Positions 33,218 to 64,000 of a stretch of 64,000 nt of DNA are shown piece by piece. Positions within the stretch are counted from its first letter, which is position 1. Every line of letters starts with the position of its first letter. This DNA comes from Eledone cirrhosa (lineage: Eukaryota). The position numbers and the translations under genes are program-made. Location: the NCBI GenBank assembly GCA_964016885.1, contig OZ024745.1:38750001-38814000 (forward strand), read 5' to 3'. Below the pieces are notes generated by a model, which was not told where the DNA came from, did no database searches, and saw only the letters and a program-made list of their open reading frames with translations.

Positions 33218-33332
33218 CATATATATATACATATATATATATATATAACTTTGAATAACTTTGAAATGTTTTGGCCAGTATTGGCCCAGGCCACGTCTAA
33301 CTTAATAGCACCACCTGGCGAAGTCTTTCAAT

Positions 33333-36300
33333 TCAGGATTTGGGCACCATGGCCCATTCGAGAAGAGAATTACTGTTTGCGGAGACATATCCGGGTGTGG
33401 GTGGTTTGTCCGGGATTACTTGGAGGAATTTGTCCAAAGACTTCTTGAATTTTGTGTGGTCAGTTTCTGTTTTGACGTGTCCTGGTGTGATGTTGAAGAG
33501 AGCAGGGCCGATTGAGGTGAAATAATTGTGCCGTATTGTTGTTATGAGTTGCGATTTAGATTTTTGAATGGGACGGATAGCAAGGGGCCCAAGCCTTGGG
33601 TGTATCTTGAAGGCGATGCCAACATCATTTGGGCAGTGATGATGGAACATTTTCCACATCATGCAGATAATATAACGCTCACGGCGACGTTGGAGTGAGT
33701 AAAGTTTCAGGTTTTCTAATCGACCCCAGTAGTCAAGGTCTGACATGCCATCTATCTTTTTCGTGATTGCCCTTTGAGGAGCTTCAAGTTTCATGATACT
33801 TTGTTTCGTGTGGGGAGACCACAGTGGACAACAGTATTCAAGGTGTGGTCGGGCAAAAGTAGAGAAGAGAAGGATAATGGTGCGGGAATCTCTCGACTGG
33901 AAGGTTCTGTGGATCCAGGAACACATTCTGCGGGCCATGTCAACTTTGCTGCTTATATGCGTGGTCCAGCTTATGTTGCTGTCCACGGTTACTCCCAAGT
34001 CTCTGATGTTGTTAGATGCCACAAGAGTTTCCCCGGAGGGAAGGGAGTACGGGAGTTTCAGAGCATCCTCTTTTCCAAAGTGGATCAGTTCGAATTTGTC
34101 TTCGTTCAGTAACATGTTGTTCTTTTCCGCCCATTGGGTAACAGCCAGTAGGTCTGACTGAAGGCTTATCCGGTCATCCACGCCATTGATGACCTTTTGG
34201 AGCTTGGAATCATCAGCGAAAATTTTAATGTTGCTGTGTTTGATGATGTCAGTGATGTCATTAATATAGATGATGAAGAGAAGTGGGCCCAACACAGTGC
34301 CTTGTGGGACCCCACTACTGACTTTGGCTGGGCTGGATTTGACTCCCTCAACTACAACATGTTGGGTTCTGTTTGACAGGAAGCTCTTGATCCACTGCAG
34401 CAGCTTTCCAGTGACACCAATATTGGACAGCTTTCTCAGTAGAATGTTATAATCAACCCTGTCAAAGGCCTTGCTGAAATCAAGGTAGATAACATCAGTG
34501 TTGGAACCCTCTCCCAAGGCTCTCAAAATGTCATCAAAGTGATGCAGTAGCTGCGTTAGGCAATCCCTTCCATTACGGAATCCATGCTGGTTGGAGTTCA
34601 GCATATTGTTACTCTCAAGGAAGTGGGTCATTCGCGATCTCACCACTCGCTCAAATACCTTAATGATATGAGAGGTGAGTGAGATTGGACGGTAATTCAC
34701 GGCAAGGGATTTGTTTCCCTTTTTGAAAACTGGGACAACAGACTGGGATAGAAGGTTTTCTGGCACATATCCAGCATCCAGTGAGTTCCGCCACAGATTG
34801 ACAATAGGAGATGCAAGTTGGTGTTGACACGCCTTCAAGACACAAGCAGGGAACCTATCGGGACCTACTGCTGAATTATGCTTGATTTCCTTTATTGCCG
34901 CCAAGACATCAGGGGCGCCAAACGTTATGTCCGATAAGGTGTAATGGGGAGTAACATCGCCGATACAGCCCAGATCGGCCATATCAGGATTGCTGAAAAC
35001 AGAGCAGTATTGTTTCTGCAGTATCTCACCCATGGTTTTAGCATTGTCTTGAAGAGTGCCATTTTCATCAATTAGAGGGCCAACAGTAGAGCCAGTGATT
35101 TTGTGTTTTTTTGCAAATGAAAAGAACACTTTGGGATTGAGTTTGATCTTCTCAATGGCCCAGGCCTCTTCAGCTCTTCTCTGATTGTTGATGAGGGACA
35201 TTATGTTGTTTTGGAGGTTATGTTTTTTAATCTCTAGTGATGAAATGGCAGTCAAGTTGATGTGTTGCTGCTGACAGTATTTCAGCTTGTTGATTTTTTT
35301 GTTCGTTCTCTTAATTTTTCTGATGAGCGTTTTTCTATTTCTAGGGATTCTGCTCTTAGATTTGTTTATAGTTCTTAATGGGGTGTGTTTAGCACATATG
35401 TTTGTAACAGTGTCCACAAATGTCTGCCAGGACTTTTTGATGTTAGTGGGTGTATGAGTGTGCGTGAAGGACCAGTCGACATGTGCAAGATCATGACTGA
35501 TCGCTTCCCAGTTTGCATTGTGGAAATCCATAGCGTCAAACGGATGGACAGGAGAGATGACATTGGGTTTGTATATTGGACGGTGGAATCTCAGATCACA
35601 GAGAACCATGTCATGATCAGAGAGTAGAGTTTTCTCCACTGCAATATTGTGGATATTGTCAGTGTGATTGCTGAAAATTAAGTCTAGGACGTTTTTGTGG
35701 CACCTCGTTCGTTCGAGCACCAGTTGGGATAGGAAGAAATCATCCATGAAGTCAAGAAGCGATTCCACAGCTTCCCTGTCTGAGGTTGAGGCAGAAGAAC
35801 CTGGTGGCAGGCTGTTTGTGGACCAGTCAACTCCGGGGAGGTTGAAGTCCCCCATCATTAAGATGTTGTCAGGGTGACACTCTTGGATGAAACACTTTAT
35901 GCTGTTGAGGCATTCCTTGAAGCATGGTACAGGCGTTTGGGGTGGCCTATAGAGCCCAACTACTAATAGGTTGTTGGTTTGACTGAATAGAGTGACTGCT
36001 TCACAGTATCCATTAGTGAATATGTTCATAGCCTCTGTTGAGAAAGAATTATGGACATAAATGGCAGTTCCGCCCTTTCTTTTGCCAGCGCGATCAGCAC
36101 GGATGGCTTTGAAATTTTTCACTTTCACCTCGGCTTCCAAGTGGAGGTTACTGAGATGGGTTTCAGTGAGGACGAAGAAAGGGATGTGGTTTGGATGGAC
36201 ATCAATCCAGTCCTCCAGGAATTTGATCTTCCATTTTTGAGTATTGGTGGAAGGGCTGATGCCTTGGGCGTTAAGCAAAAATGTAGAGGCGAGAGTGGAT

Positions 36301-36353
36301 GGTTTTAATTGTTTTGGTGTGTTGCTAATTTGTTTGTTTGTTAATGGCAGCAA
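33333..36353 (-). CDS. LINE ORF2: AP endonuclease + reverse transcriptase (frame is open up to 36470)
   Basis: Uninterrupted. EN motifs NAQG, LTETHL, GLYRPP, MGDFN, LDLIF, SDH; RT motifs NYRPISLTS, QHGFR, YLDFSKAFD, GVPQGTVLGPLLF, FADD; CR1-like SLQRRRER. The annotated start is TTG, not ATG. Confidence 0.97.
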   Translation of the reverse strand: MLPLTNKQISNTPKQLKPSTLASTFLLNAQGISPSTNTQKWKIKFLEDWIDVHPNHIPFFVLTETHLSNLHLEAEVKVKNFKAIRADRAGKRKGGTAIYVHNSFSTEAMNIFTNGYCEAVTLFSQTNNLLVVGLYRPPQTPVPCFKECLNSIKCFIQECHPDNILMMGDFNLPGVDWSTNSLPPGSSASTSDREAVESLLDFMDDFFLSQLVLERTRCHKNVLDLIFSNHTDNIHNIAVEKTLLSDHDMVLCDLRFHRPIYKPNVISPVHPFDAMDFHNANWEAISHDLAHVDWSFTHTHTPTNIKKSWQTFVDTVTNICAKHTPLRTINKSKSRIPRNRKTLIRKIKRTNKKINKLKYCQQQHINLTAISSLEIKKHNLQNNIMSLINNQRRAEEAWAIEKIKLNPKVFFSFAKKHKITGSTVGPLIDENGTLQDNAKTMGEILQKQYCSVFSNPDMADLGCIGDVTPHYTLSDITFGAPDVLAAIKEIKHNSAVGPDRFPACVLKACQHQLASPIVNLWRNSLDAGYVPENLLSQSVVPVFKKGNKSLAVNYRPISLTSHIIKVFERVVRSRMTHFLESNNMLNSNQHGFRNGRDCLTQLLHHFDDILRALGEGSNTDVIYLDFSKAFDRVDYNILLRKLSNIGVTGKLLQWIKSFLSNRTQHVVVEGVKSSPAKVSSGVPQGTVLGPLLFIIYINDITDIIKHSNIKIFADDSKLQKVINGVDDRISLQSDLLAVTQWAEKNNMLLNEDKFELIHFGKEDALKLPYSLPSGETLVASNNIRDLGVTVDSNISWTTHISSKVDMARRMCSWIHRTFQSRDSRTIILLFSTFARPHLEYCCPLWSPHTKQSIMKLEAPQRAITKKIDGMSDLDYWGRLENLKLYSLQRRRERYIICMMWKMFHHHCPNDVGIAFKIHPRLGPLAIRPIQKSKSQLITTIRHNYFTSIGPALFNITPGHVKTETDHTKFKKSLDKFLQVIPDKPPTPGYVSANSNSLLEWAMVPKS

Positions 36354-37498
36354 TGGGAGTTTGTGCAGTGGGGTGATAGTGGAGGGTGGTGCTGGGTGAT
36401 AGCTCGAATGTTTTTTTCCAGTTCTTTTGCCAGATTCATTATGGCTAAAAAAGAGGAAGAATTTTCCTGTTTAGAAGACTGTTGGTGACTGTGGTAGTGG
36501 TTATTTTTATGTAGGCTATGGTTTTTGTTTTTGCTTTTATTTTTAATTTTATTTTCATTTGTCCGACGGGTCCCCGGGAGATGGGTAAAGGGACAATCCC
36601 GGTCAAAACACAATCTGTCTCGCAGGGAAAAACGGCAGATTTGTGGATTCCTTGTTTGAGTTATTGGTGGTTGTGTTGGTGTTAAATTAGAGTATGTATT
36701 ATGGTGGTGGCTGTTTGTGGGGATAGATCGTTTTGTCCTAGGTAAATGGGTGAATTTGCAGCCACTATCCGTACATATTCTATAGCGTAGAGAGTAGCGG
36801 CAAATGATGGGGTTTCGAGTGGGTGGGTATGTGGGTGTGTGTGTTGTGAGAGGTGTAGATGATGGTTTGGGTAGGATTATACGACCTTTGTGGACTGTGG
36901 GAGGGAGAGTTCTTGTACTGGTATTAGAAGGTAAATTCCTTGACATAGCAGTAGACGAAAATGTTGTAGTAGTAGTAGTAGTAGTAGTAGGCAGAGATGT
37001 TGGCAGTGGTGATGATTGGACTGCTGGGCCAGAGAAAGGAAGTGGCGTTTCATGCTGTGAGACAGAGGCTACTGGGGGGTCAATAGTTTCATTTAGTAGA
37101 TCGGCCATTGTTGATGAATCAAGGAGTGGTTCACACTGTTGTTGTCGTTGTTGTTGTTGTTGCTGCTGATGTTGATGTTGTTGTTGTAGCTGTTGTTGTT
37201 GTTGCTGTTGTAGCTGCTGTTGTTGTTGTTGCTGCTGCTGGACAGCATTCGAAGAGAAAACACACCGTAATTTATCCAAATGTTTATTGATTAATTTAAA
37301 AGCAATTTCGATTTGCTTTAATTTATTTTGAATCTGTTGTTCAGATCGAGTTTTCAAAAATTGAACTGTACGTTTAGCAATGTCGTTCAGAGATGAAGCA
37401 TCTATATCTTCTGTTTGGGAAAGGCAATGCCATGTGTTTATTAGAATGTCGATTTCATTATCAGACCAGTTCTGTTTGGATTTTTGCTGGTTAGCCAT
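36341..37498 (-). CDS. LINE ORF1: Myb/SANT-like N-terminus, polyQ, low-complexity linker, two CCCH-type zinc fingers
   Basis: 385-aa ATG-started ORF directly upstream of ORF2; WSDNEIDILINTW..RSEQQIQNKLK; CRYSLRYRICTDSGCKFTH and CRFSLRDRLCFDRDCPFTH (C-x8-C-x4-C-x3-H). Confidence 0.85.
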   Translation of the reverse strand: MANQQKSKQNWSDNEIDILINTWHCLSQTEDIDASSLNDIAKRTVQFLKTRSEQQIQNKLKQIEIAFKLINKHLDKLRCVFSSNAVQQQQQQQQQLQQQQQQQLQQQHQHQQQQQQQRQQQCEPLLDSSTMADLLNETIDPPVASVSQHETPLPFSGPAVQSSPLPTSLPTTTTTTTTTFSSTAMSRNLPSNTSTRTLPPTVHKGRIILPKPSSTPLTTHTPTYPPTRNPIICRYSLRYRICTDSGCKFTHLPRTKRSIPTNSHHHNTYSNLTPTQPPITQTRNPQICRFSLRDRLCFDRDCPFTHLPGTRRTNENKIKNKSKNKNHSLHKNNHYHSHQQSSKQENSSSFLAIMNLAKELEKNIRAITQHHPPLSPHCTNSHCCH

Positions 37499-37759
37499 TC
37501 TAGTTTTGAGTGTGTGTGTGTTTTAGTTAAGTATTTCAATATATATATATTTTTTTTAAAATTTATTTTTGATTTATTTTTGTTTTTTGTTTTTCTTGTG
37601 TGTGAGTGAGAAGAGTATATATATAAATATGAGTATATATATATATATATATGTATATTCTGGTTATTTGAAATTAATTAAGTTAATGAAAAGACGAAAG
37701 TATATAATAATAATTTGTAGTTAAAGGAAAATGTACTCACAAGTTCGAAAACACGTGGT

Positions 37760-37860
37760 TTCAAATATATAATAATATAGATGTATGTAAATGTATTAAC
37801 CGGTCAATTTTCAAATATATAATAATATAGATGTATGTAAATGTATTAACCGGTCAATTT
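37760..37860. repeat. Exact ~50-bp tandem duplication in the LINE 5'UTR
   Basis: ttcaaatatataataatatagatgtatgtaaatgtattaaccggtcaatt occurs twice back to back. Confidence 0.9.
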
Positions 37861-37967
37861 TTGTTTGTTTGGTTTTGTCTTGTGGTTTTGTTTTGTGGCT
37901 GTGTGACTTGCTGCTTACTCGGGGAGAGAAGTAGAAACACGTCCTTATACTTCAACTGCTCAACTGC

Positions 37968-60467: not shown

Positions 60468-62477
60468 AGTCTATGCCCCTACACTTCCACAAACCACCGC
60501 CCCACCCAGCAACCCATCCCCCACCCTAATGGAAATTGTGCAGCCCGATACCCGGGACGCAGAGAGGTAAGTGCCTTTTCTCTTCACCACCAACATGGCT
60601 GTGCTGAGAGTAGGCTGTTTGAATGCGCGTGGCCTAGGCTCAACTTGGAAGCAGGCAGTGCTTCTAAGTGACCTCGGGTCACAACGTATAGATGTGATGG
60701 TTATTTGCGAGGCCCGGATCAGCAACGTGCGACAGCTGTCCCCCACCTTTGATGACTTTGAGATGCACGCATCTCTCTGTCAGCCCGGATGTGGGGGTGG
60801 GGTTGTCGTTCTGCTGCAAAAACATCTGGGTCTCGCAACACAGATGGTACATTTGGACCCGGTGGGTCGACTAGTGGTTCTGGACCTTGGCAGTGGTAAA
60901 GGCAGAGCGTTTAGGTTGGTAGCCGCCTACGGCCCTTTCGGGTCAATGCGGCCGGACTTCTTCCATCGTCTGGAGACTTTTCTAGGGACGTCCCGCTCCT
61001 TGCTATTAGTGGGGGACTGGAATGGTATCCTAGATGCACTCTGGGACTACGTAGGGGCCTGTCCCGATAGAGAGGCGTGTAATAGCCTCAAACGGTTAAT
61101 CGGTCGATTTTACCTGGCCGATGGATATTGACTAGATTTTCCGACTGCGCCAACCTGGACTTGGGCAAAGCGTAGCGGATCATCTAGGTCGTACCTAGAT
61201 AGGTTATTGGTTGGAATTGAGGATAAGGACTTTTTAAGTTGTCCAACAATGCGCATGGTTGGCTATTCAGACCACAAGTTAGTGACCTGCATGATCAGCC
61301 TTGACAGAACTCATAGACAGGGACCCGGTTACTGGAAGCTCAACTTGTCCTTGCCGGCAAGTGGGGCTTACAGGGACCGGATTAGCACTTTAGTTGAGGA
61401 GCGGTTGACGGGCGCCATCGTCAACAGCAGGTGGTGGGGATCTCTCAAAAGAGAGATTAGAGGAGTCTCTATAGAATTTAGTAAGGAGTTAGCCTCGGAT
61501 AGAAATAGGAAGGAAAGGGAGTTGGTAGATAGTGTAGAAGAGGCAATTAAAATCAGCGACGTGGTCAGAGTGCTAGCGTCGAGATCAGCCCTGAGCCAGT
61601 TCTTCAACGCGAGACACGAAGGCTGCATCGTCCGAGGCGGGGTGCCTGCTCTGGGTGACGAGGGGACCAGAGCTGTTGGCTGGGCCCGTGTGACAGAAGC
61701 CAAAAGAGGGAGTAGATCCACTATCCGGTCTTTTCGAGAAAGGCTCTACAGATACGGGCGCCTGGGTAGGGACCCCTAGAAAAAGATCTGTCCCAGATGC
61801 GTGTGCGACGAGGAAACCTTGCACACGCATTGGTACACTGCTCGGGCATTGCCGATCTGTGGGGCTATGTCGAACGGCTGCTGTCAAGGGTGGGACCGAT
61901 CCGGCTGACCACCGAGTCTATTGTAACGATCAAGCCCCCTCCCCTCTTCAAAAACGAAGGAGAGGCGGTGTTTCTGTGCGTAATAGCCATGGCGAAAGAG
62001 GTTGTATGGTGGACGCGTCTAAAAGGACTGAGGTCTGACACCTTTCTCTCTGGCCAACAACTGGTCCGTTTCTTTCGATATCATTTCGGAAGAAGGATCA
62101 GGATGGAGAGAGAGGTGCTGCACCCCAGCCGTTTTTATGAAAGATGGGTGAAAGTGGCGAGAATGGCCCGTGTGAATGGGCCTTCACTCTACATCAGACT
62201 ATAGGTGAGGAAGATGAAAGACCAAGGGAGCACCCCTTCTCTGTGCTCCTGAGGAGAAGGGTTGCACACTTTTTTTCGGGGGTGTGTGCGACCCCCAAGG
62301 CGCCTCCTCTCTATTGAGGACTTTGTTATTAATTTTATTTTTTGTTATATTTTATTTTATTTTTAAATATTGTTATTGCCTCTTCCTTATTGAGGACGCC
62401 TTGTTTTGTAAACTCCCCCCCCCCCCCCATTGTACTTGTCCCACTTTTGATGCCCTGGTTGCAAATAAAAGAAACAT
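60468..62477 (+). mobile_element. Tx1/L1-clade element with internal deletion: AP endonuclease joined to the C-terminal zinc-finger region, RT absent
   Basis: ATG 60595: GCLNARGL, ICEAR, AAYGP, VGDWN, (stop 61129) TWTW..RSYLDR, YSDH, GPGYWKLN; from ~61735 RERLYRY..CPRC..EET..HALVHC; 3'UTR with AATAAA. Confidence 0.88.
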
Positions 62478-62679: not shown

Positions 62680-64000
62680 CTTCTTCACCAAAATTCGAAG
62701 GAGGAAAGGGGAAGATAAGCTTCCCCCTGCCATTGTCATAGTAGCAGATGTCAAAGACAAAAGTCAGCCAGAGGAAGGATTTTCTCCACCTGCTGACCGA
62801 CAACTTGACGTTACCATGGCAACAAAACCAAACAACCAGCCGCACCAGCAACAACAACAACAACAACAATGCTACGGACGAAAACAACACCAATAACATT
62901 AACAATAACAACAACAACAAGACCAATAACTGTGATAACAACAACAATGATAACAACAACACCACTAACTACAACAGCAACACAAATAAGGAAAAGTACT
63001 CCTTCGCCCAGACAGCAAGGAAAACCCTCGACTATCTGCCAGTAGATATAACCAAAGCGAACGAGATACTGGCAGATGCCAACAAATACATAACGTACGG
63101 GGAAAATGGATCATTTTCGATCCACCCCTCCCCGGAACTAAAAATCAGAAACTCCTAAACACTGTCATGTTTAGGACAATCTCAAACAAAAGCAAAAAAC
63201 CAGCTCAACCATCACAGAGTGAGATAGATCTGGTTTTAAAAGACGTCATGAAAGACATAACATTCATTCAGAAGGATAGACTCTACGGGAGTCTATCTAT
63301 TCTCATGAAGGACAGGGACACGGCAGCGAAACTGTCCATAAAACCAATGGGTAGAAGGACACAACAAATAAACAATCCACACCATCCTGCCGATTATGGA
63401 CATATGGTGGGTTTTGACAGGTTTCCTGAACCTGGATGATGACATGCTGGTGTCCATGGGAAAGGCATCGGGTGACTTTCAGTGTAACGAGCCTCGAACT
63501 TGTAGTTCAAATGAGGCCCGAAAAGATCGCCCATAGGCCTGAACGCGTCATACTGGATGATCAAACTTTTATCAACATTACCGTTGAGGGTAGGCGGCCC
63601 TCGTGTTACCTCTGTGGAACCAGAGGTCACCTGAGGACTGTCTGTCCTCAACTTAATAAGAAAACCCCAATCCTCCCTACACCACCAACAACTGCACAAC
63701 CAACACAATCACAACAATCACCACTACAAAAACAACAACCACAGCTCAAACCAAAACAAAACAATGTCCAACCCATCCCCCCGACAAAAAAAAAACAATT
63801 TCCAAAACACCCGCACCGCAAATACAACCCGGAAATATACCCCTCCCCTCCAACGCGGAAGATGACCGTCATTCGTCGTCAGACGAGGAGGAGCACTTCC
63901 ACACAATCAACAGAAAAAAAGAAAAACACCTCAGGCACACAAATGAAAACAACCCTCCCCAAAACATAACACTGACACCAACACAAAAGAGCACACAACA
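62680..64000 (+). mobile_element. Frameshifted L1/Tx1-type ORF1 (gag-like) remnant, runs off the window end
   Basis: INITVEGRRPSCYLCGTRGHLRTVCP (CX2CX4HX4C knuckle), poly-Asn N-terminal tract, several frameshifts. Confidence 0.75.

Follow-up and report, generated by a model that had tools for sequence, protein, structure and literature searches.

The ORF2 of a young LINE in the genome of Eledone cirrhosa is very probably translated by −1 ribosomal frameshifting. Sequence comparison points to a shift at the slippery heptamer U_UUU_UUA (36452-36446), which would yield an ORF1-ORF2 fusion protein of ~1,388 aa. How ORF2 is translated from the two-gene RNA of a LINE is a long-open question. A reading of this DNA made from the letters alone (the sequence-only reading) had proposed a retrovirus-style ORF1-ORF2 fusion for the element, and the −1 overlap, the missing AUG and the deep conservation of the heptamer argue for such a fusion. 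The element lies in a 64,000-nt stretch of contig OZ024745.1 (the window). Coordinates are positions in the window, and all features of the element are on its minus strand.

Structure of the element

The LINE is full-length and young, and occupies positions 33247-37967 (ends approximate) with a (TA)n microsatellite at both ends. It has the features of an APE-type LINE: ORF2 encodes an APE endonuclease and a reverse transcriptase (RT), ORF1 lies upstream, and the dispersed copies have a fixed 3' end and variable 5' ends. The 5' UTR (37499-37967) contains a ~50-bp tandem duplication, which is absent from the copies L013 and L027. The short 3' UTR (33247-33332) terminates in two copies of a 10-nt unit and has no poly(A). 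In all eight other copies compared (L247-L254) the shared 3' end is directly followed by (TA)n, which suggests that the family has a target preference for (TA)n microsatellites. The label CR1-type, used here throughout, refers to the 3' end and to RT motifs that look CR1-like, and not to a position in a tree with named reference elements. An identity with Zenon was rejected: as a passage of PMC13343379 describes it, Zenon has no ORF1 and carries a poly(A) tail, whereas the window LINE has an ORF1 of 385 aa and a 3' end of tandem units. A search of representative proteins recovered 77 proteins at E<=1e-30, and no relatives were found among viral contigs.

ORF1 (385 aa, 36341-37498) extends from the ATG at 37498 to the TAA at 36343-36341. 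It encodes, in this order, a weak Myb/SANT-like N-terminus (Pfam Myb_DNA-bind_4, E 0.0036, below the cut-off), poly-Gln, two CCCH-type fingers recognised by pattern match (36746-36802 and 36581-36637), a Phe-Leu pair and a short, likely helical tail. The poly-Gln and poly-Thr tracts (37240-37140 and 36990-36960) vary in length among young copies, mostly by threes. When Pfam was applied to the ORF1 of three relatives, the sole match was a weak PHD in L142.

The ORF2 frame has 1045 codons and ends with a TGA at 33335-33333; 1037 of these codons (33333-36446) follow from the first post-shift codon. The endonuclease domain (35613-36272), which begins with a conserved Asn (36272-36270), was identified by alignment and by matches above the cut-off to Pfam Exo_endo_phos and Exo_endo_phos_2. 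The Glu of its ETH motif is at 36164. The RT domain (33987-34718) matches Pfam RVT_1 with E 5e-30, and Pfam detects no protease or integrase domain in the window LINE. A single gene model, that of the predicted protein P0005, combines a CCCH-containing ORF1 with the endonuclease and has Asn-Phe-Leu at the corresponding place; it is probably the product of a gene caller bridging the same ORF1/ORF2 junction.

The ORF1/ORF2 junction

The ORF2 frame is −1 relative to ORF1 and opens after a TAA (36473-36471), as the sequence-only reading had stated; every coordinate of that reading holds. This last ORF2-frame stop, which is TAA or TGA in older copies, lies 18 nt before the heptamer that encodes Phe350-Leu351 of ORF1. 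A second heptamer, A_AAA_AAC, is found further downstream (36416-36410). Both had been described as correctly phased, and both T TTT TTA and A AAA AAC are indeed in the phase of ORF1, so that they follow the X_XXY_YYZ pattern in the zero frame of the upstream ORF. In the window LINE and in all 20 scored relatives (see below), the −1 frame is closed just before the site and free of stops from there into the downstream protein. In the third (+1) frame, the window LINE and its clade relatives reach a stop within a few codons of the heptamer (36445 onward), so a ribosome slipping the other way would terminate immediately. As there are 26 matches to X_XXY_YYZ in 4.66 kb, about 0.24 are expected in phase per 130 nt. 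The heptamers of the window alone thus exceed chance modestly, and the decisive excess comes from the distant relatives.

We confirmed that ORF2 has no usable AUG. The first ATG in its frame (36029-36027) is located 81 codons after the first endonuclease Asn, beyond both the Asn of the NAQG motif (36272) and the Glu of ETH. Creation of an AUG by A-to-I editing was considered and rejected, since none of the ORF2-frame codons ahead of the Asn is ATA. The context of the ORF1 stop contains no ATG either, and an overlap of the UAAUG type, as in the stop-start coupling of SART1, is therefore not present. Just before the ORF1 stop, the ORF2 frame contains TTG CTG (36353-36348), two candidate near-cognate starts.

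Conservation of the heptamer in distant relatives

An alignment of the endonuclease gave 108 loci, 80 from metagenomes and 28 from genome contigs. We examined 87 of them, leaving out 21 that were short or weak, and scored the 20 best loci covering both the endonuclease start and the junction. Dropped before this selection were L148 (broken, with the heptamer present), L151 and L152 (contig ends before the junction), L160 (no ORF1 seen) and L219 (outside the clade). The median pairwise identity of the endonuclease among the relatives is 34%, and fourfold-degenerate sites are 31% identical, indicating that neutral sequence is saturated. L143 and L144 show about 50% identity to a protein that NCBI assigns to the ctenophore Mnemiopsis leidyi, which makes the clade a deep one. 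In a FastTree tree built from unnamed loci only, 15 short rows included, the window LINE and its relatives form one clade of 23 rows with an SH-like value of 100, and 19 of the 23 have the heptamer.

ORF2 is in the −1 frame relative to a long ORF1 in 20/20 relatives, and all of them have a Phe-Leu pair 0-42 nt past the last stop of the ORF2 frame. This pair is written T TTT TTA in 17 of the 20, compared with 0.44 expected from the codon usage of each locus (computed P 4e-28, with loci treated as independent), and in none of 58 other Phe-Leu pairs. The site is thus conserved beyond the constraint on the protein. The sequence-only reading had named loss of the heptamers through synonymous variation as evidence against frameshifting; the first heptamer is intact in these 17 relatives even at saturation. 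No stop interrupts the −1 frame over the 111-609 nt between the site and the end of ORF1 in 20/20 relatives, as against 1.55 expected under synonymous shuffling of ORF1.

Three relatives, the closest one among them, do not have the exact heptamer. L139 has T_TTT_CTG at the site and an in-phase G_GAA_AAC 48 nt further (90 nt after the ORF2-frame stop), L140 has G_TTT_TTA, and L164 has T_TTT_TTG, the heptamer being present in its sister L154. Between the heptamer and the Asn, 13 of the 20 relatives have no ORF2-frame ATG; in three more it precedes the Asn by just 1-2 codons, and in the remaining four (L149, L156, L157 and L164) it lies well upstream. The clade member L160, in which no ORF1 was seen, also has ATGs.

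Copies in the Eledone cirrhosa genome

A search of the 3.0-Gb host genome with 501 nt spanning the junction gave 1,193 candidates. The 40 that we scored are all about 99% identical and show no length change. No junction indel is present in any of 29 other copies, chosen as best matches, and the heptamer with its exact spacing to the endonuclease is found in 53 of 58 rows (four copies counted twice). Among 150 matches the commonest open frame is 1045 aa long. An exact 32-mer including the heptamer occurs 595 times, and an overlapping 30-mer downstream of it 606 times. These 29 indel-free copies, the 53 rows and the 595 exact occurrences rule out a one-base indel private to the window copy. A family consensus with a single fused ORF or an upstream AUG had been put forward as what would expose the window copy as such a mutant; the family has neither.

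We also compared 46 further in-genome copies, of which 44 belong to older subfamilies at roughly 66-83% identity and two to the young family. T TTT TTA is kept in 36/46. At the second heptamer, 17 of the 46 have A AAA AAC and 13 have G AAA AAC, and the distant members of the clade have no second A_AAA_AAC site. Of the two heptamers proposed as shift sites, only U_UUU_UUA is conserved; we rejected A_AAA_AAC as the main shift site and regard it as auxiliary at most. Taken singly, the 46 decayed copies keep the ORF1/ORF2 phase in 19 cases and have the other two phases in 15 and 12, and they are thus uninformative on phase. A net shortening by 30 nt is common to six copies of one subfamily. Most older copies retain the TTG CTG next to the stop of ORF1.

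Downstream RNA structure

The sequence-only reading saw no strong stem downstream of the heptamer in the window LINE, and our folding, limited to local stems without pseudoknots, agrees with it (z 0.16 and −0.26; 0.22 in the scoring scheme used for the relatives). A weak hairpin is predicted at 36416-36458 (z −1.64) with the heptamer in its 5' arm; among five copies, one of its 11 pairs is changed on both sides. As this best hairpin contains the heptamer, it is not placed as a stimulator and cannot act as a classical one. In the relatives, 60-nt segments starting 5 nt after the site have a mean z of −1.10, with 17/20 negative and seven below −1.5, compared with means of −0.06 to 0.48 in four control windows. 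In L150, L154, L158, L159 and L161 a clear stem starts 4-9 nt past the site, and there is little downstream structure in L141, L142, L147, L153 and L157. None of nine loci submitted to Rfam matched a family.

Alternative explanations

Translation of ORF2 could begin independently of an AUG, after termination at the ORF1 TAA, with a restart at the TTG or CTG of 36353-36348 and a separate ORF2 protein as the product. The position of these codons 5-10 nt before the stop and their retention in most older in-genome copies fit such a route, and so do precedents: it is the route described for SART1 in PMC10275272, and AUG-independent initiation is favoured for mammalian LINEs in PMC5009743. We nevertheless consider it improbable. 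It leaves unexplained why a heptamer 108-609 nt before the stop is fixed at synonymous positions and why the −1 frame stays open from there to the stop, and the letters TTG CTG also encode the conserved His-Cys-Cys-His end of ORF1. Moreover, the ORF1 stop is inside the first strand of the endonuclease in 10/20 relatives, where it falls on the Leu-Asn codons; a restart at the stop would consequently give no intact enzyme without backward movement. The chance that the heptamer merely reflects a conserved Phe-Leu pair in ORF1, with ORF2 made by some other route, appears negligible to us. Phe-Leu is kept in 20/20 relatives, including the three without the exact heptamer, as this explanation would have it, but the codon choice is fixed at three synonymous positions (17/20 against 0.44, and 0/58 in the controls). 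The codon-choice test thus largely refutes it.

Two further explanations place the event in the synthesis or processing of RNA, and we give both little credence. Slippage of RNA polymerase on T6, adding an extra U and fusing the frames in a minority of RNAs, is very improbable in our estimate. The same fusion, open frame and conserved T run are expected under it, and no RNA structure is required, which suits the window LINE. However, 17 of the 18 scored relatives with T6 have an A directly behind it, and the fixed phase and the enriched downstream stems matter to ribosomes and not to a polymerase. Cis-preference would also reinsert the slipped RNAs, yet exact T6A copies number 595 against 606 downstream 30-mers. 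Even less probable is that the U run and the following AG form a splice acceptor, a spliced RNA joining an upstream AUG to the ORF2 frame. In the window a pyrimidine stretch does end in TAG at the site, and a G directly after the heptamer spells the acceptor AG in 15/17 relatives, but this G also fits the Glu codon that usually follows Phe-Leu in ORF1. Three loci have no AG (L142 with T, L145 with C and L148 with A), pyrimidines make up no more than 50% of the preceding 20 nt in 17/20 relatives, and the same counts of 595 and 606 leave no pool of spliced, reinserted copies. Four sequencing runs showed no joints over 35900-37100; none of them is on record as RNA, and on RNA they are uninformative.

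Proposed mechanism of frameshifting

Under −1 frameshifting, most ribosomes would finish ORF1 and release its protein of 385 aa, and a few percent or less would slip one base back with the Phe and Leu tRNAs on the heptamer. The slipped ribosomes would pass through a low-complexity linker into the endonuclease, giving a fusion of approximately 351 + 1037 = 1,388 aa in which the CCCH fingers are retained. In many relatives, the predicted stem starting about 4-9 nt downstream would stimulate the slip. The window LINE seems to use the slippery site alone, or something that folding does not detect; with no predicted stimulator, its frameshift rate is probably low.

Comparison with known systems

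According to a passage of PMC3542737, a eukaryotic −1 signal consists of an X_XXY_YYZ heptamer and a structure 5-9 nt downstream. The attribution of U_UUU_UUA to HIV in the sequence-only reading is borne out by PMC5009743. The two papers show for HIV-1 gag-pol the same heptamer in the same phase, a structural ORF upstream and a polymerase ORF in the −1 frame, and many of the LINE relatives have a predicted downstream stem as well. Unlike HIV-1, the window LINE is a non-LTR element with an APE endonuclease, with no protease or integrase by Pfam and no predicted stimulator, and its frameshift is predicted from sequence. The second heptamer, A_AAA_AAC, corresponds to the MMTV gag-pro shift site.

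Among non-LTR elements, TRE5-A and TRE3-A of Dictyostelium are said to require a −1 frameshift for ORF2, in a figure legend of the review PMC5911963 that gives neither a slippery site nor a test. They resemble the window LINE in the APE-type non-LTR organisation and in the −1 frameshift proposed for it, and differ in being amoebozoan, targeted to tRNA genes and equipped with a C-terminal zinc finger. SART1 and mammalian L1 likewise have a bicistronic RNA and an unconventional expression of ORF2 (PMC10275272 and PMC5009743); there, reinitiation near the ORF1 stop gives a separate ORF2 protein, whereas for the window LINE the evidence favours a shift a long way before the stop. For mammalian LINEs, a 2016 review of frameshifting speaks of an unknown type of initiation and favours an AUG-independent one (PMC5009743). 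The Drosophila element HeT-A provides a proposed case of recoding in a non-LTR element, but the shift occurs within gag and there is no RT (same review), and the junctions of Paramecium LINEs, with +1 shifting, reinitiation or readthrough, are inferred from consensus sequences only (PMC5405496).

The CR1 group (CR1, L2, Zenon, Crack, Daphne and Rex1) has in common with the window LINE an ORF2 with APE and RT and a 3' end of short tandem repeats without poly(A), as given in PMC13343379, PMC4120745 and PMC10294476. The word 'frameshift' occurs 0 times in the main texts of these three surveys, and 'CCCH', the type of the ORF1 fingers of the window LINE, 0 times in the main texts of PMC13343379 and PMC4120745. 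We found no report of −1 frameshifting in CR1-type LINEs in the literature outside subscription journals, Repbase Reports and supplements; PMC4700185 likewise offered nothing on the subject. Frameshifting in the window LINE would be a familiar mechanism in a setting for which it has yet to be established, and its comparative support is strong. The site, defined to 7 nt and fixed throughout a deep clade, allows a synonymous test with a change of one codon. If the proposal is true, a LINE can produce ORF2 as retroviruses produce their polymerase, in a fusion of fixed proportion, which would provide a simple basis for cis-preference and would change the annotation of ORF2 starts in these families. 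Animal-type genomes would also supply many natural −1 frameshift cassettes, one of them in a recently very active family and working without an obvious stimulator.

Recoding-like junctions in other CR1-type loci

We looked for similar junctions in 66 further loci at about 25-35% identity, counting heptamers without a codon-usage expectation. Many of these loci have no ORF1, start ORF2 with an ATG, or are broken. A −1 overlap with A_AAA_AAC in the phase of ORF1 is present in 11/66 (L174, L186, L194, L196, L200, L202, L205, L208, L211, L214 and L219), and L196, L200, L202 and L205 have strong stems just downstream of it, of −22 to −38 kcal/mol over 70 nt. Four more of the 66 (L187, L189, L209 and L218) combine a −1 overlap with an in-phase G_GAA_AAC, located 6-18 nt after the ORF2-frame stop. 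In seven others (L188, L193, L220, L222, L231, L232 and L233), ORF1 and ORF2 share one frame, interrupted by a single UGA with C as the next base (CUN or CAR), a readthrough-like arrangement.

It is reasonably likely that recoding, and not reinitiation, is the route to ORF2 in a large and ancient part of CR1-type LINEs. The deep clade would shift at U_UUU_UUA, sister groups would use A_AAA_AAC or G_GAA_AAC with strong stems, and other loci would read through UGA-C. The product would be a Gag-Pol-like fusion of an RNA-binding CCCH module with the enzyme, and without a protease.

The 28 loci L219-L246 are eukaryotic LINE fragments inside prokaryotic genome assemblies, and probably represent host contamination of the bins. 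The window itself contains further LINE pieces on the plus strand: a second endonuclease ORF of LINE type, broken and interrupted by a stop (60571-61779), and an ORF1-like frame with a CCHC knuckle (63430-63969), both of which are presumably L1/Tx1-like, judging by their motifs.
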